A stretch of DNA of 63,852 nucleotides, taken from NCBI GenBank assembly GCA_963723365.1, contig CAVRRG010000055.1:1-63852 (forward strand), in the 5' to 3' direction. The position numbers were made by a program, and so were the translations under genes. The notes beneath the pieces are model-generated. The model searched no databases. It was not told the origin of the DNA and saw only the letters and a program-made list of their open reading frames with translations. Source of the DNA: Calditrichota bacterium (lineage in GTDB: Bacteria > Calditrichota > Calditrichia > Calditrichales > J004). Positions 4,237 through 23,190 of this stretch are shown here, in pieces (positions within the stretch are counted from its first letter, which is position 1; every line of letters begins with the position of its first letter).

Positions 4237-4357
4237 TTTTGTCTCCTTACCCAGTATCTTTGAATAGTTAGCCTCCCCGCCATGGCAGAGAAGGCTATAC
4301 GTATTTTATTAGTACGCATCTCCTGTTTGAATTATTCCTGTTAACCACCCGGCCTTG

Positions 4358-4607
4358 TGCAGAGCTTCAAAATAATGGTAACAGTTAATTAGATATCCTT
4401 CACTCCCCGCCAAAGGCCGGCAGGCTGTTCAGGATGACATCCCGAATGTTTGTCATTCTGAGTGAAGCACAGCGTAACAAAGTTGCCACAGCGAATTCGC
4501 CGGGGAGAACCGAGGCGAGAATCTAATAGAATGTTTTAATAGAAAAGAGAATGCTAATAATAAAATTTGTCACAGCCAATTTGTTACCGAAATTGTGAAG
4601 ACTTACA
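4358..4607. mobile_element. MITE copy A (non-autonomous, TG...CA ends) carrying a REP-like doublet and two nested insertions
   Basis: Imperfect 26-bp TIRs (TGCAGAGCTTCAAAATAATGGTAACA / TGTTACCGAAATTGTGAAGACTTACA), flanks CTTG/CTTA, colinear with 14689-14882. Confidence 0.7.
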
Positions 4608-4658
4608 CTTAGCGGGAGCGGCACTATGGAAAGTGGCATGTAACGTGAAAAATGTATT

Positions 4659-5951: not shown

Positions 5952-6059
5952 TGTAAAATCCCTTTTATCTATTCACTAACCCTATGTATCGGTATTTTTA
6001 CAAGAAATTCAAGTAATCAAACAATCTTGCCTATAACGGGTTTGATTAATCAATGTATG

Positions 6060-7004
6060 TTATTCTGCTTCCCATTTTAAGATGCGCAGGGCGCGCAGGG
6101 TGTTCCAGAGGCTGGGCTGCCCCACTTTTTCCATCTCAAAAAAGACTTTAGCCGGATATTTATGCTCCAGTTTCCAGAAACCATCTGCTGTTTGTTTATT
6201 TTTCAGAAGATGCAGGGCGTCCTGCATGCGATCATCCTTTTTGATATTCTTTTCCTGGAAATAATCCAGGCAGTGTATGATATCGAAACGCCAGCGTGGT
6301 GGAAAAGAGAGTTTGGTCATATTGGGATTAACAGATTGCCAGGTTGTGTTTGATTTGTACAAATGATGTTCAAGCAGAAACTCTATGCCTTCTTTTTGTT
6401 TTTGCTGAATGGCTTTTATTATAGCACTATCCGGAAATCTTTTCTCATATGCCCAAAACCCTTCCAGTACAGATAGGGTTGTGTGAAACGAACTGTGTAT
6501 TGCTCCTTCATGTCGATTGCAGTTCCACCCTTTATCAGGCATTTGTTCTGCTATTAAAAACTTAAGCATTCGATCTATCCGCTCATCTTCTATTTGAAAA
6601 TGACAGAGCATGGATAGCAGCATTGCAGTAACACAGCACTCACCATACTGCCAGCTTTTCCAGTAATTTATACCGCCATCTTGTTCATAGAATCCTTTAT
6701 CGAGAAGCAGGCGGCAGGCCTTTTCTGTGTTTCTCGTGTTTGGCGCGCCAAAGCGTTTTAAGAGCAGCAGGGTATAAAAGGTGGATGTCCATTTGGGCGA
6801 ATAGAGTTTATTTGACCAGCTGCCGTTTTCCTGCTGCAGATCCATGAAGCGCTTACCCCAACCCTCTTTCAGAATTTTCTGTTTCTCTTTCTCAATATCT
6901 TTACCCGGCGCTTTAACCAAATCCCTGAGTGTGTGATAGCGAATAGCAGGATCACCTTGCAGCAGCCAGGCTATTTGTTTTGTATATTTTTGCATAAAAT
7001 CCAT
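6060..7004 (-). CDS. Prenyltransferase/squalene-cyclase-repeat-like (alpha/alpha toroid) hypothetical protein
   Basis: WLLQGDPAIRY, QQENGSW...LYSPKWTST, QMPDKGWNC, SSFHTT, FPPRWRFD, GQPSLWNTLRALRIL. Confidence 0.7.
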   Translation of the reverse strand: MDFMQKYTKQIAWLLQGDPAIRYHTLRDLVKAPGKDIEKEKQKILKEGWGKRFMDLQQENGSWSNKLYSPKWTSTFYTLLLLKRFGAPNTRNTEKACRLLLDKGFYEQDGGINYWKSWQYGECCVTAMLLSMLCHFQIEDERIDRMLKFLIAEQMPDKGWNCNRHEGAIHSSFHTTLSVLEGFWAYEKRFPDSAIIKAIQQKQKEGIEFLLEHHLYKSNTTWQSVNPNMTKLSFPPRWRFDIIHCLDYFQEKNIKKDDRMQDALHLLKNKQTADGFWKLEHKYPAKVFFEMEKVGQPSLWNTLRALRILKWEAE

Positions 7005-7030
7005 TCTCTCTTATTTAGGATGCCTGATAT

Positions 7031-7453
7031 CGTCATCCTGAGCTCGTCTCAGGTTCTCTTGCCTTTTTAGGATGCTGAAATAAATTCAGCATGACGTTGG
7101 GTTGGTGCTCGTGACGTTTGGCCTGGTCTGAGCTTTATATAGCTGTTGTGCATACGTAATAATAAGGGGATGTGGAAACAAGTTCAACATGACGGAAAAG
7201 AAACACGTCATCCTGGGCTTGTCTTTAGGATCTCTCGCCTATTTAGGATGCTGAAATGAATTCAGCATGACGTTGGGGCTTGGTATTCGTCATCCTGAGC
7301 TTTATATAGCTGTTGTGCATACGTAATATTAAGGGGATGTTGAAACAAGTCAGTCGTAAGACAGATCCCCGCCGGCGGTCTGGCAAGCTGCTTACCAGCG
7401 TGATTCAACATGACGGAAAAGAAACTTGTCATCCTGAGCTTGTCTCAGGATCT
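7031..7453. repeat. Composite tandem array of REP-like palindromes (GTCATCCTGAGCTTGTCTCAGGATCT / GGATGCTGAAATAAATTCAGCATGACG family)
   Basis: A ~175-bp unit made of alternating palindromes occurs just over twice here, and the same unit recurs at 9952-10165. Confidence 0.85.
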
Positions 7454-7498
7454 CGGAATATACTTCCTGATTTCAGAAGTTCTGTTTTTAATTATCTA

Positions 7499-9745
7499 TC
7501 ACATGGTAAAAGCATAACCCAGTTTTGCAAACAGTGTTCTATTTGTCTGTGTAAAATTGACAGCCTGGTCGCCATAATAGTTGTCCGAATATCCCAGGAA
7601 GAACACCGTGTGTGGATTTATTTTATACGAAAATAAAAACTGGCTGAATAAAGATTGTGTTTCTGGATCAACATCATCATCATTATACAGGCTAGTATTT
7701 CTGTCATAATCCACAGATTGAAGTATGGCCCTTAAAAACATTCTTTTTGTGAACTGATAAGTAAATTTCATACTGCTTAAATGAGCCGTATACAATCTGC
7801 CGGCATCAACATCCAATCTTTCCCAGGTATGGTTTAGCTCCAGGCGTATATGCAAACCCAGTAATAACTCTATCATGGGGCTCAGCTGATATCGTGTTCC
7901 CAGGCGGGTGTTGGCATAATCAATCCGGTCTCCAAAAGTCCAGCCCAGGTGCGCAAAAACCATGGAAGAAGGTCTTATACCGGCGCAACCAGCCAGCCAG
8001 AATACATTTTTAAATGTTTTTCCATCGTACCTGTCCGAACCGAACTCACTATAAATACTGGCATGCGATTGCATAGGGCCTTCGTAATTTACATTAGCAG
8101 ATATAACGCGATGCAGGAGATTGTCCTGGATATCACGTTTGTAGTCATAACTGGCTGAGATACTAAACCAGTTATACCAGTGTCCGGGTTTTTCTCTCCA
8201 GCGGTACTGCCCGCCAATTTCACTATAGCTGTAACCCACCTGGGAGATAAACCCTAAATCTGCTCTAAAATCATTATCGACTTGCTTGTGTGTTCCATAT
8301 AGATAGTAGTCTTTTGAGGAATGTGAATAATGGGTGTGATATGCATTCCCGGTAAACTCATCTTGCGATTGATCAAAATTCATGCTTATAGAATCAGGAT
8401 AGTGGGTGCGGGATTGCAGTACCTGAAATTGAAAACGATCTTTTTTTGTGAATTTAATATCACCATCCACACCGGCCATTCTGTTATGATAATTATCTCC
8501 TTCACGACCAGAAATAATAGCTCCTAAATTGGAAGATTCACTAACATCCACTTTATAACGTAAGGCACTGCCCTGGCTTTTTTTATTTAATGATTCGGAA
8601 TTCGAACCCTCTGTTGCAGGAATTAAAAAGTTTGTAAGGTTGTCCTGCACCGTATAAAGCCCTACAGAATGGATACCCTCTTTACCTGTAAGTTTTACAC
8701 CCCAGGTTGGATCGGCCATGGTACGTGTATGCGTTGTGTTGAAGGGAGTTGTAAAAAAGTCATTACTCTCCAGGAAAAAAGGCCGCTTTTCAGGATAATA
8801 GAGTGCAAACTGATTATTTATATCCAATTGAAAAATGTCCGCTTCAATATTGGAAAAATCAGGATTTAGCGTTCCACTCAGGGTCATGTTAGGAGTAAAG
8901 CCCCATTTTGCTGTCAATCCAAAATCATACTTTTCTTCAGTATTTTTAAAGGGCCCGGAAGTATCATCCCTACGGGCCTGCGATCTTATAACATTGAAGG
9001 TAGGATCAATTTCAATATTTTTCCCGGGTGAAGCACCGGCAAAACCGATAAGTTTTTCAGCCTGGCACATATAACAGTTGTTATTACGGTCACGTATCCA
9101 GGTACCAATATGGTGCCTTACACTCCTGGGATAACTGCGCACCACATCAAAACCCCAGGTCTGCTCTTCTATATTATCAGGAAAACTGAGAGCGCTGAAT
9201 GGTATGGCCATTTCTACAATATAACCTTCATCTGTTATTCTTCCGTCAGATTCCCAGATAGCATCCCAGCTGCCACCGCCGCCGGTGGGTGTTTCAATCA
9301 TATCTGATTGTATTCCAAAAGGATTACATACAAAATCATAAGAACGCCGCTGGTCATTAAAGGTATCGAACAGGATAAGTACCCAGTCATCATCCCAGGT
9401 ATTATCCCGATCACAAAAACGGGCTCTTATCTGATCAGGTTCAGGATCGTAGGCCTTAAAGGCAACATATATATGCGTATCATTATAAACCAACAGCGCT
9501 TCCGTTTTAACCGGGGCCTCAATATTTTCACCGGGACTAACCTCTATATTGGCATCAATTTTTACAGCTTTATCCCAGAATTCCTCATTTAAATAGGCAT
9601 CTACTTTCATAAGCGCATTTACCTTGGGTACAAGGTATGTCACCTGTTCTTTTGGCTGCAGAGAATCCGGAGTTTGAGAAAGTAAAGAGCCAAAGATAAG
9701 GAAAGTTATGCTGCTTATAATGCAGAAAACAAAACCTATACGCAT
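7499..9745 (-). CDS. CBM9-like / DUF5916 outer-membrane protein
   Basis: Signal peptide, N-terminal DOMON/CBM9-like region (DTFNDQRRSYDFVCNPFGIQSD), LNPDFSNIEAD and YYPEKRPFFLE motifs, C-terminal beta-strands. Confidence 0.85.
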   Translation of the reverse strand: MRIGFVFCIISSITFLIFGSLLSQTPDSLQPKEQVTYLVPKVNALMKVDAYLNEEFWDKAVKIDANIEVSPGENIEAPVKTEALLVYNDTHIYVAFKAYDPEPDQIRARFCDRDNTWDDDWVLILFDTFNDQRRSYDFVCNPFGIQSDMIETPTGGGGSWDAIWESDGRITDEGYIVEMAIPFSALSFPDNIEEQTWGFDVVRSYPRSVRHHIGTWIRDRNNNCYMCQAEKLIGFAGASPGKNIEIDPTFNVIRSQARRDDTSGPFKNTEEKYDFGLTAKWGFTPNMTLSGTLNPDFSNIEADIFQLDINNQFALYYPEKRPFFLESNDFFTTPFNTTHTRTMADPTWGVKLTGKEGIHSVGLYTVQDNLTNFLIPATEGSNSESLNKKSQGSALRYKVDVSESSNLGAIISGREGDNYHNRMAGVDGDIKFTKKDRFQFQVLQSRTHYPDSISMNFDQSQDEFTGNAYHTHYSHSSKDYYLYGTHKQVDNDFRADLGFISQVGYSYSEIGGQYRWREKPGHWYNWFSISASYDYKRDIQDNLLHRVISANVNYEGPMQSHASIYSEFGSDRYDGKTFKNVFWLAGCAGIRPSSMVFAHLGWTFGDRIDYANTRLGTRYQLSPMIELLLGLHIRLELNHTWERLDVDAGRLYTAHLSSMKFTYQFTKRMFLRAILQSVDYDRNTSLYNDDDVDPETQSLFSQFLFSYKINPHTVFFLGYSDNYYGDQAVNFTQTNRTLFAKLGYAFTM

Positions 9746-9792
9746 GAGCTAATCCTCATATTGTGAAAAAAAGTGCTTGAGATATAAGGTAA

Positions 9793-9817
9793 GACGAAGG
9801 TTTATTGAAAAAGTTAG
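9793..9817 (-). promoter_or_regulatory. Putative ECF sigma promoter for the DUF5916 gene
   Basis: Minus strand CTAAC-N16-CGTC, about 50 nt upstream of ATG 9745. Confidence 0.4.
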
Positions 9818-9840
9818 CCCTTATTTGGAAAAAGTTTGAA

Positions 9841-9917
9841 ACAGCACGCAGTGTTTGATGGCGCAGGACGGGATCACCTAGCAGCAACCAGTTGATTTGC
9901 TTTGTATATTTTTCCAT
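9841..9917 (-). pseudogene. 5' stub no. 1 of the 6060-7004 gene
   Basis: Translates MEKYTKQINWLLLGDPVLRHQTLRA versus MQKYTKQIAWLLQGDPAIRYHTLRD in the intact gene. The upstream leader and REP array are also duplicated. Confidence 0.85.
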
Positions 9918-9951
9918 TCAATCAATTCTCCCTATTTCGGATGCCTGATAT

Positions 9952-10165
9952 CGTCATCCTGAGCTCGTCTCAGGATCTCTTGCCTTTTTATTAGGATGCT
10001 GAAATAAATTCAGCATGACGTTGGGATTGGTGCTCGTGACGATGGGCCTGGTTCACCATCCTGAGCTTTATATAGCTGTTGTGCATATGTAATATTAAGG
10101 GGATGTTGAAACAAGTTCAACATGACGGAAAGGAAATACGCCATCCTGAGCTTGTCTCAGGATCT
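9952..10165. repeat. REP-like palindrome unit, second locus
   Basis: Near-identical to 7031-7232, including the preceding GGATGCCTGATATCG. Confidence 0.85.
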
Positions 10166-10176
10166 AGCGGCTAATT

Positions 10177-10265
10177 CCTTGCAGTATCCTGTCTTTTTCT
10201 GTTTATATTTTTTTAAAAGGTGCTTGCAGCACATCCCGCAGTGCTTGCTGGCGAAGGACAGGATA
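10177..10265 (-). pseudogene. 5' stub no. 2 of the 6060-7004 gene
   Basis: Translates YPVLRQQALRDVLQAPFKKI*TEKDRILQG versus DPAIRYHTLRDLVKAPGKDIEKEKQKILKE. Confidence 0.7.
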
Positions 10266-10335
10266 TTACAAAACAAAGTGAAAACTAATAACTTCAAAAA
10301 ATTTTATATTTGGTTTTGAGATTATACTTTGTACC

Positions 10336-10364
10336 TTGACAACATAATTATAGGTATCTAGTTT
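10336..10364 (+). promoter_or_regulatory. Putative sigma70 promoter of the cold-shock gene
   Basis: TTGACA-N17-TAGTTT, which would give a long (~135 nt) 5' UTR typical of csp genes. Confidence 0.45.
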
Positions 10365-10505
10365 TTTGCTTTATTGTTTCAGTTGTTATTCAATCGAAAA
10401 TAAAATATATCGCGGAGAATAGTGCACATTATTCATCGCGATTTTTTTTTGTTAAAAGCTTAAAAATTAAGTACCCAATATTCAATTTTTTTAAGGATTA
10501 AGATT

Positions 10506-10706
10506 ATGGAAAAAGGAACAGTTAAATGGTTCAATAGCACAAAAGGCTTTGGATTTATATCAAGAGAAGAAGGTGATGATGTTTTTGTGCACTTCAACGA
10601 AATTCAGGGAGAAGGCTATAAGGCATTGGATGAAGGGGATCAAGTTGAATTTGAACTTGGAGAAGGCCCCAAAGGACCTATGGCAACAAAGGTCACTAAG
10701 GTATAA
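10506..10706 (+). CDS. csp: Cold-shock protein (CspA family)
   Basis: GTVKWFN.TKGFGFI (RNP1) and DVFVHF (RNP2), AAGGA RBS. Confidence 0.97.
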
Positions 10707-10729
10707 TTCTTATACATTCGCGCTAAATC

Positions 10730-10757
10730 CCCGGTTGATTTCAACCGGGAACTTTTT
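10730..10757 (+). terminator. Intrinsic terminator after csp
   Basis: CCCGGTTGA-TT-TCAACCGGG stem followed by a T-rich tract. Confidence 0.75.
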
Positions 10758-10832
10758 ATTTCTTTGAATTTGGATTTGAAGAAAAAGAAATATCTTAATT
10801 TAAATGGAATAGGTCAAATAGTACTTATATAT

Positions 10833-11417
10833 CTATTTCCTCTTTTGGATACTTTCAACAATTTCCTTTGCTGTAAGTTGAATATTGGCAAAAGAATCTA
10901 CATAGGGGCGTGCTCTGGAGATGGCAACATTTAAGATAACCCTGCTGCTTTGTGTATCAATCATCCTGATGGAAAAAGAAACTGTTGAACCAAATCCGGC
11001 AACACCATCCCAAATTAAATAATCAGTAAGTTCACCAATAATCACTGCATCAGCGCCTGTTATTTTGCCAATTTCTGCTGCGTTTTTGGAATCAATTATT
11101 CCTGATTGCTGTAAAACCTGTTCATCTAAAAGTTTAGCAATTTGACCTCTCTCAATTAATTTCAAATTTTTTATTGTAGCCAATTCGTTTGCTAAAAGAT
11201 TGGCAACTACCCGGCCGCCGTCTTCTCCGGCGCTTTTATAGTTAGTCAGGCTGGCCTGCCCCTCATCTTCAAAAACATAATTCAGATCCATAACGGCTAT
11301 ATTCCAGTCTTTTGAAAAAAGGAGTTCCTTTTCCATAGAAATGGTTGGAGCAACCTGAACAGGGACGCAGTTTAAAAGAAAGGTTGACATTAAAACAGTA
11401 AGCAGGATGATCTTCAT
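10833..11417 (-). CDS. CsgG/HfaB-family lipoprotein
   Basis: GAGGAG RBS, lipoprotein-like LLNC, LIERGQIAKLLDEQ...AAEIGKITGADAVIIG motif. Confidence 0.8.
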   Translation of the reverse strand: MKIILLTVLMSTFLLNCVPVQVAPTISMEKELLFSKDWNIAVMDLNYVFEDEGQASLTNYKSAGEDGGRVVANLLANELATIKNLKLIERGQIAKLLDEQVLQQSGIIDSKNAAEIGKITGADAVIIGELTDYLIWDGVAGFGSTVSFSIRMIDTQSSRVILNVAISRARPYVDSFANIQLTAKEIVESIQKRK

Positions 11418-11516
11418 AATTCTCCTCAAATAAATATTAAGCATTTCAATCTTTACTGCAACGTTTGGGGGTACTTCTTTAGTCCCAACAGTGAATATAA
11501 AATTTCTTATTAAACA

Positions 11517-11675
11517 CTAGCCATTACTATCAGTAGTCGTATCTTTATTATCAGCTAATGGGGTTTGCCCCTCTTCAACATTCTTATTGATTTTATTTAA
11601 TCGCTTTTGTTCTTTTTTCTTCTTTTTTTCAATTTCTTTCTGCCTTTTTTCGTACGAATATTTATTTTTTACCAT
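11517..11675 (-). CDS. Small lysine-rich protein (52 aa), not in ORF track
   Basis: MVKNKYSYEKRQKEIEKKKKKEQKRLNK..., resembling small basic proteins of the Y.YEKRQKE..KKKKKE.K type. Confidence 0.6.
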   Translation of the reverse strand: MVKNKYSYEKRQKEIEKKKKKEQKRLNKINKNVEEGQTPLADNKDTTTDSNG

Positions 11676-11790
11676 TGGTTTCTCTCATGTTAGATTGGGG
11701 TTAAATGATGTTTTAAATATATACAACGTCTGCTGCTTTTTTGCCTGGGTCAATTTAAAGTGAGAGGTTGCAAAGCACAAGGAATTAAGT

Positions 11791-11831
11791 AACCAAATCC
11801 CGCAGTGTTTGGTAGCGGATGGCCGGATCAC
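11791..11831 (-). pseudogene. 5' stub no. 3 of the 6060-7004 gene (41 nt)
   Basis: 34/41 nt identical to 6915-6955, encodes DPAIRYQTLRDLV versus DPAIRYHTLRDLV. Confidence 0.85.
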
Positions 11832-11923
11832 GAATCTGATAGGTTAGCTCTCAAACTGAAAACCAAATCCTAAAAACTCAGATTTTCGCAACCAATAACG
11901 GGCAGAAAATCCCACCTGTAAAA

Positions 11924-13039
11924 TTATTTAAGAAGAAACATCTTGCGGGATTGAGTAAATGTTTCTGAATGGGAAGTAACGAGTATCCTATAAAGATAAA
12001 CACCGCTGGCAACCGTCTTTCTCATGGAATCCTTACCATTCCATGTCACTTTATACCTGCCAACTGGTTTGTAATCACGCACAAGCGTATTTAGCTTACG
12101 TCCCCCAATATCAAAAATTTCCAGGGTCACATTAGCAGCTCTGGACAATTGATATTCAATTGTTGTTTGCGGGTTAAATGGATTTGGATAATTCCGTCCG
12201 AGAGCAAACTCAGGGTTCAAACGAACACTTCCTTGACCAACACTGGTAGTTAAGGGAGTAGCATCCGGCCATTCCAATTCATTAAAAAAAGCAGTCGCCT
12301 CACCGTCATCCTGCAAATAAACGCCTGCCTTCCAATAACTTGGAAAGGTCCAATAAGAAACATCAACATTAACTTTCTCAACGCCGTCAATGCTGATTAT
12401 CATATTACCATTGGTAATTGATACATCACAATTAAAATAATCTGTTGGGTCAGGTCCAAGATCAACATGCTGTGTTGCCGAACCACCAGCGTCTGTTTTG
12501 TAAGCGGCCCAGAGGTGATTAACAGGGGATTTGGCTTTGTGTTTATAAATTCGCAATAAAGGTTTGTTCGGCCCACCTGCAGCGCCATCATCGTGAATTT
12601 GTATAAGGGTCACTTGATCGCAGCTTTGAGAAACAATTTTCAAGTTTGCATGAGCTGTCCTGTTAGCGTTGTTTACATTCCAATTTGCTAAGAATCTTAG
12701 TTCAGTCCTTTTTGATGCACCACTTTGAGTGAATGCTATCTTATTAGTATCTGCTACATAAAACCAGTTAGATTGATAGCCGGCTACTAGTTGGGCTTGA
12801 GTTGCGGCAGTCGAACTCGTCGGAGCTTGCAGTTTACACTGAGCAAGTGCTGCTTGAAATTTAGGGATATCATATGGAGCAGCATAAATCGAAGTATCAA
12901 TATTCAGTGTAATTGCAGAAGCATTTGTTATTGCTGAATTAAATTCAGAATCTGAATTGACAACTTGTGCCTGCAAAATACCAGATAAGAGTATTAGCGT
13001 TATCACAAATATTGATTGCTTGTATCTTTTAATCTTCAT
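11924..13039 (-). CDS. Polysaccharide lyase family 7 (alginate lyase-like) with C-terminal FlgD-Ig/T9SS-type sorting domain
   Basis: PL7 motifs RTELR, QIH and YWKAGVYLQ, signal peptide, C-terminal NYPNPFNPQTTIEY. Confidence 0.85.
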   Translation of the reverse strand: MKIKRYKQSIFVITLILLSGILQAQVVNSDSEFNSAITNASAITLNIDTSIYAAPYDIPKFQAALAQCKLQAPTSSTAATQAQLVAGYQSNWFYVADTNKIAFTQSGASKRTELRFLANWNVNNANRTAHANLKIVSQSCDQVTLIQIHDDGAAGGPNKPLLRIYKHKAKSPVNHLWAAYKTDAGGSATQHVDLGPDPTDYFNCDVSITNGNMIISIDGVEKVNVDVSYWTFPSYWKAGVYLQDDGEATAFFNELEWPDATPLTTSVGQGSVRLNPEFALGRNYPNPFNPQTTIEYQLSRAANVTLEIFDIGGRKLNTLVRDYKPVGRYKVTWNGKDSMRKTVASGVYLYRILVTSHSETFTQSRKMFLLK

Positions 13040-13129
13040 TGCTTTCTCTAATTGAAAAACATTAAATGGAAATTTACAAACGGAATGGACTTTGGCGCAA
13101 TGCCTCGGCAATTTATTTATTATCATTGC

Positions 13130-14667: not shown

Positions 14668-14688
14668 ACGGTTTTCCTCCCCGGCAGG

Positions 14689-14882
14689 TGTACAACTTCA
14701 CAATAATGGTAACAGTTTATAAGAGATCCTTCACTCCGTTCAGGATGACATCCCGAATGATTGTCATTCTGAGTGAAGCACAGCGTAACGAAGAATCTAA
14801 TAGAATGTTTTAATAGAAAAAAGGATGCTAATGATAGAAAATTGTCACAGGTAATTTGTTACCGAAATAGTGAAGAATTACA
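14689..14882. mobile_element. MITE copy B
   Basis: TIRs TGTACAACTTCACAATAATGGTAACA / TGTTACCGAAATAGTGAAGAATTACA, perfect 4-bp flanking duplication CAGG, internal REP-like doublet. Confidence 0.75.
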
Positions 14883-14918
14883 CAGGGCAGCTAACATTGA
14901 AATTGGTTTTTCTGGAAA

Positions 14919-17259: not shown

Positions 17260-17373
17260 CTACGGGGTTTTCTTTTGTTGCTTTTGCTGCTGCTTTTTTG
17301 ACTTTTGGTCTTGTTTGTTTTTCTTCTGTTTGTTACTCTTGTTCTTATCTTTTTTTCCGCCCTTGTCTCCCAT
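17260..17373 (-). CDS. Small Lys/Gln-rich protein (37 aa), not in ORF track
   Basis: AAAGGA RBS, MGDKGGKKDKNKSNKQKKNKQDQKSKKQQQKQQKKTP*. Confidence 0.65.
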   Translation of the reverse strand: MGDKGGKKDKNKSNKQKKNKQDQKSKKQQQKQQKKTP

Positions 17374-17467: not shown

Positions 17468-17517
17468 TGTAACACAAGATTTATCTTGTGAACCAGCCAA
17501 CATGAATATCGCCTTAC
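17468..17517. repeat. REP doublet (GTAACACAAGATTTATCTTGTG plus degenerate partner)
   Basis: 27 nt identical to 23078-23104. Confidence 0.7.
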
Positions 17518-23077: not shown

Positions 23078-23190
23078 TGTAACACAAGATTTATCTTGTG
23101 AACCTTGATTGCCCACACGACATAAATGTCGTTTTCAGTTGTAGCGCAAGACTCATCTTGCGTTCTCATACGACATGAATGTCGTGCTAC
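23078..23190. repeat. Cluster of four GTAR-type REP palindromes (two doublets) between convergent genes
   Basis: GTAACACAAGATTTATCTTGTG, ACGACATAAATGTCGT, GTAGCGCAAGACTCATCTTGCG, ACGACATGAATGTCGTGCTAC. Confidence 0.8.

Follow-up and report, generated by a model that had tools for sequence, protein, structure and literature searches.

Recurring pieces of an accessory gene upstream of its intact copy in a Calditrichota genome: candidate scars of short-homology recombination

We asked why pieces of a single gene recur upstream of its intact copy, with unrelated genes between them, on a 63,852-nt contig of a Calditrichota bacterium (this whole stretch is referred to as the window). The intact gene, here gene A, is a 314-aa ORF on the minus strand (6060..7004), and the three extra pieces lie on the same strand. 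Piece B (9846..9926) comprises codons 1-27 of a gene A copy. Piece C (10178..10264) covers codons 18-46, is decayed with an in-frame stop, and ends at the edge of a copy of the gene A leader, while piece D (11790..11831) covers codons 17-30, has no start codon and is sharp at both ends. B together with its leader aligned to A in a 329-nt match of 85% identity (9850-10176 versus 6928-7244, E 3e-101). D was identical to A at 35 of 42 nt, with six of the seven differences at third codon positions, and C at 57 of 90 nt without gaps, compared with 49 of 90 for the best background match in the 2.04-Mb assembly. An N-terminal profile of the family recovered B, D and C with E-values of 4e-7, 6e-6 and 9e-3, respectively. 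The preliminary description had reported that the N-terminal segment of gene A recurs three times, and its places and orientation were confirmed; however, the term N-terminal stub suits B only, as C and D have no gene-like 5' arm. The shared core D-P-x-x-R-x-x-x-L-R proposed there does not extend to C, which has no core Asp and reads Y-P-V-L-R in frame. The motif is indeed a local and not a genome-wide repeat: a four-copy consensus occurs four times in the assembly, all inside this 5 kb, although a consensus built from the copies themselves is circular as a test.

The copies were 63-93% identical to each other, which confirms that they are not an assembly collapse, and independent sequencing runs held C with its 3' extension (run X1, 10165-10376) and the start of gene A (run X3, 6922-7016, exact). 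Although the assembly is of metagenome type and no listed contig spans the whole region, the chance that the array is an assembly artefact is thus negligible.

Gene A is an accessory gene of patchy distribution. Its family is widespread (4873 proteins at E≤1e-20), and gene A showed weak squalene-cyclase/prenyltransferase-like similarity (PF13249, E 7e-6, below cut-off). Its leader (7005..7460) is a cluster of GTCAT-type palindromic REP-like units, the two larger ones in tandem. The module between B and A holds a 748-aa DUF5916/CBM9 protein (7499..9745, minus strand). The module between D and C holds a cold-shock protein on the plus strand (CSD, 10506..10706), whose gene has a cspA-like leader and a terminator-like hairpin, and, on the minus strand, a CsgG-family protein (10833..11444) and a 52-aa lysine-rich ORF without a Pfam match (11517..11675). 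The names given earlier to this cargo (DUF5916 with CBM9, CSD, CsgG) were upheld. In contrast, the REP unit between C and B, previously counted as unrelated cargo, proved to be a copy of gene A's own leader (9927..10176), identical to 7005-7244 at 221 of 238 nt.

All three extra pieces have codons 19-27 (27 bases) in common; in the intact gene the core, taken as codons 17-30, lies at 6914..6955 on the minus strand. One explanation is that gene A was duplicated in tandem and its copies decayed independently by deletion, the core being merely what stays recognisable. C is indeed decayed, and this genome contains tandem paralog arrays with the same REPs. However, random placement of the pieces gives a shared stretch of at least 25 nt with P of only 0.003-0.007. 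The core ranks 53rd of 299 windows for conservation within the family, and so is not its best-conserved part, and a full-length gene A profile found no further gene piece near the locus. Independent decay is therefore very unlikely and already largely refuted.

We then compared the sequences on either side of the core. The 70-nt left arms of C and D were not gene-like when compared with A (p 0.37 and 0.67), whereas C continues past the core as gene (right arm versus A, p 0.004). The four copies thus carry all four arm combinations (left/right): gene/gene in A, gene/other in B, other/gene in C and other/other in D. C and D have their left breakpoints at codon 17-19, where B too switches within its mosaic, and the identity of D to A stops at a GTT box. 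Relative to A, B is a mosaic with 93% identity in the leader, 84% in codons 4-18 and 63% in codons 19-27; its coding part as a whole is 75% identical (leader versus coding, Fisher p 7e-5), and its core is closer to C (81%) than to A (63%). P-V-L-R, common to B and C, was absent from the 30 most frequent motifs in the N-termini of 111 homologs. D, on the other hand, matches the family consensus over 13 codons, and its core looks fresher than its flanks. Judged by their sequences, the pieces differ in age and fall into at least three divergence classes.

Four such arm combinations are exactly the pattern of attB, attL, attR and attP, which speaks against recombination without a dedicated enzyme. 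An alternative, which we regard as possible but less likely, is that the core is an attachment site in gene A for an integrase acting in trans, as in CIME accretion. A would then be attB, B attL-like and C attR-like, while D and a site in a relative described below would be chimeric attP/attI sites between tandem integrase-less elements. The coincidence of the breakpoints of C and D with the switch in B at codon 17-19, the GTT boxes in D and the relative, a 7-nt stretch identical in B, C and D, and the rejection of independent decay all favour this idea. Furthermore, the non-gene arms look related. A 15-nt motif is present, across 2 Mb, only in the left arms of C and D, with borderline arm alignment (p 0.05), and a 10-nt direct repeat of the 3' end of D, 70 nt upstream of it (11861..11870, minus strand), is the start of this motif, otherwise found only in the left flank of C. 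A narrower form of the alternative, in which a candidate trans-acting recombinase stacks integrase-less modules (the DUF5916 outer-membrane protein and the csp-CsgG-small ORF block) in several rounds at a ~30-nt site in the 5' part of an accessory gene, is doubtful. Core swapping with intact alleles would then account for the perfect coding sequence that D retains.

Several observations argue against an attachment site. The window contains no recombinase, the lack of an integrase having been noted before, and the assembly contains a single tyrosine recombinase, a XerC-like protein of 298 aa among housekeeping genes. No resolvase, large serine recombinase, IS110 or Y1 transposase was found in this assembly, which is 52.6% complete, so that a recombinase may be unassembled. 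Tyrosine-recombinase/Xer sites consist of two inverted 11-bp arms around a short spacer. No two such arms were found in the cores, where inverted symmetry reached at best 6-7 of 11 positions (shuffle p 0.73-1.0). The best matches to the XerD arm of dif-like sites reached 6-8 of 11, at positions that did not agree across all four cores. In addition, core identity among the copies is low, 63-81% over codons 19-27, with the identical run in B, C and D (three of the four copies) limited to 7 nt. C (other/gene) lies upstream of B (gene/other), apparently the reverse of attL followed by attR, and the target would be a patchy accessory gene.

Further sequencing runs bear on whether the locus varies. 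Since X1-X4 and X7-X9 cover only 5-11% of the words of the region, the parts they leave uncovered, such as most of gene A in X4, are uninformative on absence. In a relative of ~90% identity (run X4), one contig of 251 nt and depth 2.2 skips the 398-nt block that comprises B, the leader and the 3' part of C (9837..10234). It has 34 other letters in its place and joins core to core, a joint that is also compatible with an attachment site. By eye, these letters resemble the right arm of D, with two short motifs at matching distance, and they begin with a GTT box; this likeness again fits related non-gene arms. Depth at 11774-11855 suggests that D-like DNA is present in the same run, which also has csp joined to CsgG and the csp-upstream sequence joined to the OMP-upstream sequence. 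In a near-identical strain (run X1), one contig with one other letter in 191 lacks 21 nt between two 8-nt direct repeats (10220..10240), a loss that removes part of the core of C and shows that short-repeat deletion acts at this locus. Variable segments with short direct-repeat ends and an empty allele in a relative are thus seen twice, in one contig each. The one variable module seen is gene-free, and no cargo gene was shown to vary, which may count against integrase-driven accretion. No excision circle was seen among the assembled contigs.

We also searched for similar arrays elsewhere. Profile A3 was run against three sets of genomes. Among 86 genomes of the phylum, six others matched strongly; in the family to which a Bacteroidales carrier belongs, 13 of 56 genomes matched; and of 251 genomes from the class that includes a Chloroflexota carrier, 78 matched at E≤0.01 and 19 at E≤1.2e-9. 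No stub lay beside a gene A homolog in the 38 other genomes with a strong match (6 + 13 + 19), and no short-frame match within 10 kb of a gene copy was found in the three sets; in the Chloroflexota class the best candidates, at most 29 per genome, were scored, so weak stubs may be missed. With the N-terminal 50 aa, five carrier genomes gave long-frame matches only, and homolog loci had no second core. As a DNA query, the D region matched 11 of the 85 other genomes of the phylum over only 18-36 nt, never across the whole core, and gave only chance-level matches in phages. Neither a degenerate core pattern nor gene A gave any locus in viral contigs, a plasmid collection contained three distant gene A homologs (27-33%), and ORF lists of three close-homolog loci, none from the same genus, showed no integrase-encoding element when inspected by eye. 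The absence of stubs and of the D site from these genomes is a further argument against an attachment site.

On balance, we lean towards the view that the pieces are scars, left when recombination at short homologies used earlier stubs as anchors in several rounds, and that a dedicated recombinase was probably not involved. In a first step, one or two illegitimate joins would have placed foreign DNA on both sides of the core. The core would then have been the only sequence that new and resident gene A alleles shared with those sites, so that slippage, template switching or homeologous crossover could have landed there repeatedly. Such events would have produced the permuted C-leader-B block of 390 nt as well as the relative's core-to-core joint, with the right-hand break of C probably supplied by the REP cluster. 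On this view, the intervening genes would have been carried along in a region that is unstable in general, and would not be recombinase-mobilised cassettes. Cores of low identity without symmetry and the mosaic B appear to favour such scars, as would D, a 42-nt stretch of coding type from which neither gene end could be restored. The restriction of stubs to this genome among those searched, and the REPs between tandem paralogs on two of its other contigs, may point the same way. However, with 945 nt of homology between an incoming gene A allele and the intact gene, there is no need for crossovers to concentrate at the 27-42-nt core. Of the claims made earlier, repeated addition of DNA at one site holds to the extent that one short stretch served on more than one occasion, as seen from the divergence classes and the core-to-core joint. 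The idea that every addition leaves an intact gene together with a displaced 5' stub applies to B alone. Of the two mechanisms proposed there, the homology-driven one fits somewhat better than an att array. A single genome and a single contig are too little to establish the order of events.

Right-hand breakpoints lie at a GTT box, and for an integron integrase the GTT at codon 30 could have served as a secondary site through which cassettes entered gene A, which would itself have been acquired as a cassette. Integron attC sites are R''-L''-L'-R' hairpins of roughly 57-141 nt after each gene. By eye, gene A ends in a short attC-like remnant (6031..6065, minus strand) in which its stop lies inside TAAC, followed after 21 nt by a GTT box; this remnant does not reach the length of a complete attC. 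A 101-nt hairpin resembling attC (z -2.0) occurs in homolog L138, and several neighbouring genes end at TAAC. Nonetheless, IntI (TIGR02249) matched only the XerC-like gene, below cut-off, in the 52.6%-complete assembly, and the cores do not fold as attC (D region, z -0.2 to -1.2). Visual inspection showed no attC downstream of the cargo genes, csp is inverted and the left breakpoints are left unexplained. We therefore consider cassette insertion highly improbable. Even less credence is given to regulation of gene A by the pieces, retained as antisense or guide RNAs. The consensus sequence of D would suit such a role, but the pieces had no Rfam match, no significant fold and no promoter excess (6 found versus 7.6 expected), the core of C is partly lost in the near-identical strain, and no RNA run holds the region.

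Comparison with known systems shows partial likeness to several. In CIMEs and tandem accretion, as described by Guedon et al. (2017, PMC5704250), direct repeats of 8-60 bp bound the modules and chimeric attI sites form between tandem elements. Similarly, direct repeats in this size range partition blocks without their own integrase, the last repeat lies inside the intact gene, and D with its two non-gene arms resembles a chimeric attI. Unlike here, the repeats in that account are identical or almost so and the integrase family is known; our locus has divergent cores, C before B, a patchy accessory target, no related integrase-bearing element found and no cargo shown to move. Small repeat-flanked variable segments, attributed to slippage, are common in bacteria (PMC2884548). 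Their properties (20-500 bp, short direct repeats, absence in some strains) fit the 398-nt block and the 21-nt loss, whereas here one repeat recurs four times, derives from the coding sequence of a neighbouring gene and falls into several divergence classes. Homology-facilitated illegitimate recombination (PMC3240628) combines a homologous anchor with an illegitimate joint at the opposite end, and its product can be a resident 5' stub next to foreign DNA, as seen at B; alone, it predicts neither a repeated breakpoint nor foreign DNA on both sides, as at D. If the pieces are scars, the locus would be a neat but local example of a leftover gene fragment that seeds its own rearrangement hotspot and mimics an att array; it would serve as a caution and would not be a new system. 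Were the core an attachment site, the locus would be an accretion array without integrases, set inside a non-essential gene and with its recombinase still to be found, and it would be of genuine interest to the study of mobile elements in a sediment lineage that has received little attention.

The gene A leader also resembles the CGTC-tagged REPs (subfamilies CGTC-1 to -4), described by Di Nocera et al. (2013, PMC3733652) as short palindromic units starting with CGTC and clustered between co-oriented genes. It differs from them in that the sole GIY-YIG nuclease found in the genome sits among a different repeat type and a Y1 transposase was not found; a literature search gave no paper joining CGTC, GIY-YIG and REP. 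Finally, the same REP family was observed between tandem paralogs on contigs C17 and C43 of this genome, and C43 carries short N-terminal kinase ORFs.

Three further same-orientation copies of the resident gene A (6060-7004, minus strand, 314 aa) had been claimed in the preliminary description, and all three were found upstream of it. Piece B (9846-9926, minus) holds gene A codons 1-27; a copy of A's REP leader lies upstream of it, and leader and codons together match A over 329 nt at 85%. Piece C (10178-10264, minus) covers codons 18-46 and has an in-frame stop, and piece D (11790-11831, minus) covers codons 17-30, with 35/42 nt identical. Their description as 5' stubs holds for B and not for C and D, which start at codons 18 and 17. 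A family N-terminal profile recovered B, C and D at E-values of 4e-7, 9e-3 and 6e-6, and a position matrix built on A and 15 homologs for the core (around codons 19-27, which are common to all four copies) gave D, A and C the top three ranks in the 2.04-Mb assembly, with B in fifth place after one unrelated match. The four-copy consensus occurs in the assembly only at these four sites, a circular result in that the consensus was made from the copies. Differences from A at codon positions 1/2/3 (B 6/3/8; C 12/4/14; D 1/0/6) are skewed away from second positions, and B, C and D are therefore all of coding origin.

The 70-nt arms of the core were tested against shuffles in 12 comparisons. A shares its left arm with B (p 0.0005) and its right arm with C (p 0.004); the left arms of C and D were borderline (p 0.05), and the remaining 9 of 12 comparisons were at chance level. 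The set thus comprises A as gene/gene, B as gene/other, C as other/gene and D as other/other. On the minus strand the order is alginate lyase, D, small basic ORF, CsgG, csp (inverted), C, REP leader, B, DUF5916 protein, REP leader and A, and the C-to-B block is a circularly permuted piece of gene A's own start. The alginate lyase gene directly upstream of D (11924-13126; PF08787) encodes a FlgD/Por-type C-terminal tail and is followed by a terminator-like hairpin (11916-11901).

Independent decay of remnants was largely ruled out on three grounds: random placement on the 945-nt gene yields a common stretch of at least 25 nt at P 0.003 (B anchored) or 0.007; other parts of the family are better conserved than the core, which ranks 53 of 299 windows; and a full-length profile detected no further gene A fragment near the locus. 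Something concentrated events on the core.

The leader of B is identical to that of A at 221/238 positions and its coding part at 61/81 (Fisher p 7e-5). Codons 4-18 of B show 84% identity to A; codons 19-27 show 63% to A and 81% to C. V20-L21 and an altered codon 23 are common to B and C; the 111 homolog N-termini compared have I at position 21 in 100 cases and L in 2, and their 30 commonest motifs do not include P-V-L-R. This identity pattern, together with the changes common with C, suggests that B is best read as a hybrid, in which an A-like 5' arm would have been joined to a C-type core. D encodes the family consensus at 13/13 codons yet has six synonymous-site differences from A, and therefore derives from a third allele.

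On balance, we favour reading the pieces as a self-seeding scar. The core would have been isolated in one or two illegitimate joining events; later, it would have been reused, as the only shared sequence, by slippage, by template switching or by homeologous crossover (for slippage-type variable segments, see PMC2884548). This explains the arm pattern, mixed ages, poor core identity and lineage restriction; it does not easily account for crossovers that avoid the rest of gene A or for the freshness of D. A more doubtful explanation is an integrase-less tandem array in which the core is the attachment site of one enzyme, compared here with the CIME features described in PMC5704250. One enzyme would give both the arm pattern and the fixed breakpoints, but this reading fails on the poor identity among the cores, on the order of C and B, on symmetry, since the four cores showed neither inverted symmetry nor a consistent dif-like arm, and on the failure to find a relative with an integrase at the site. 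An attC-like fold was not found in the cores. In the 52.6%-complete assembly, the sole PF00589 protein is XerC-like (298 aa; the genes on either side, identified by eye, are for HPr kinase and topoisomerase), the resolvase, large serine recombinase, Y1 transposase and IS110 families gave no match, and no IntI scored above the cut-off. The locus is a real local hotspot, most likely of recombination scars; it behaves like a degenerate repeat-bounded module array rather than as a demonstrated member of any site-specific system.

No public sequencing run contains more than 11% of the region's words, and in the contigs neither cargo gene loss nor an excision circle was seen. Each of the following joints, from X4 (a ~90% relative) and X1 (a near-identical strain), comes from one low-depth contig and may stem from other organisms. 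The first X4 contig (251 nt at depth 2.2, with about 90% identity) connects 9836 to 10235 via 34 other letters, and therefore has a single core there, without the 398-nt C-B block. These letters resemble D's right flank by eye in two short motifs at matching core distance; in the assembly, a looser version of the pattern occurs 11 times and a stricter one at D only. A second X4 contig spans csp to CsgG (10654-10950), which makes the two cargo genes neighbours in that run too. Inside C's core, the X1 contig (1 other difference in 191 nt) is missing 21 nt that lie between 8-nt direct repeats.

With the profile that finds all three pieces here, no stubs beside the gene were detected in the 6 other strong-match genomes among 86 of the phylum, in the 13/56 matching genomes of a Bacteroidales family, or in a Chloroflexota class (19 strong carriers among 251 genomes, 78 with any match). 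Nor was a second core seen at four loci where the sequence upstream of a complete gene A homolog extends for 5.8-10 kb. The array is lineage-specific within the genomes searched. Elsewhere, csp adjoins a distant DUF5916 homolog (26%; L057 in genome G082) and lies near a distant CsgG homolog (27%; L055 in G048), either possibly by chance.

The gene A family is large (of 5366 candidates, 4873 proteins match at E<=1e-20), with only sub-threshold similarity to squalene cyclases, and patchy, with any match in 7/61 genomes. Homologs at 69% identity occur in one Bacteroidales and one Kangiellaceae MAG, in unrelated neighbourhoods. A 35-nt attC-like remnant follows gene A (6031-6065), an attC-like hairpin of 101 nt occurs in homolog L138, and homologs L019/L023 have attC-like starts; the family may therefore sometimes travel as an integron cassette. 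In the accessory genes ending near 2108, 2926 and 3817, the stop codon falls within TAAC or close to it, and an attC-like start comes next.

In the first 31 kb of the window, a run of accessory genes is short in gene length and mostly of one orientation; this part also has other duplicated intergenic blocks, and several of its genes have attC-like ends. The REP motif (named after PMC3733652) has 35 copies in the assembly, 9 on the window's contig and 10 and 3 on two contigs carrying tandem paralog arrays. Sensor/phosphatase-like paralogs (C17:11465-27249) and Ser/Thr kinase-like paralogs (C43:16990-31850), both named by eye, are interleaved with this REP family on contigs of the same assembly, G000, and the latter array includes N-terminal kinase ORFs of 115 and 118 aa; local duplication with leftover starts is therefore not unique to gene A here. 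The assembly's one GIY-YIG gene, for a small nuclease (L074:1000-2120, G000:C20), has tandem ~108-nt palindromic units on both sides, and these repeats differ in type from the REPs of the window. A REP-bearing intergenic block, possibly a MITE-like element, is present at 4340-4608 and again 10.3 kb away at 14671-14883, with stretches of 79-96% identity between the copies, and an identical 27-nt intergenic repeat lies at 17468-17494 and 23078-23104, 5.6 kb apart. A very short lysine/glutamine-rich ORF (17263-17373, 37 aa) resembles the 52-aa ORF at 11517-11675 in composition.
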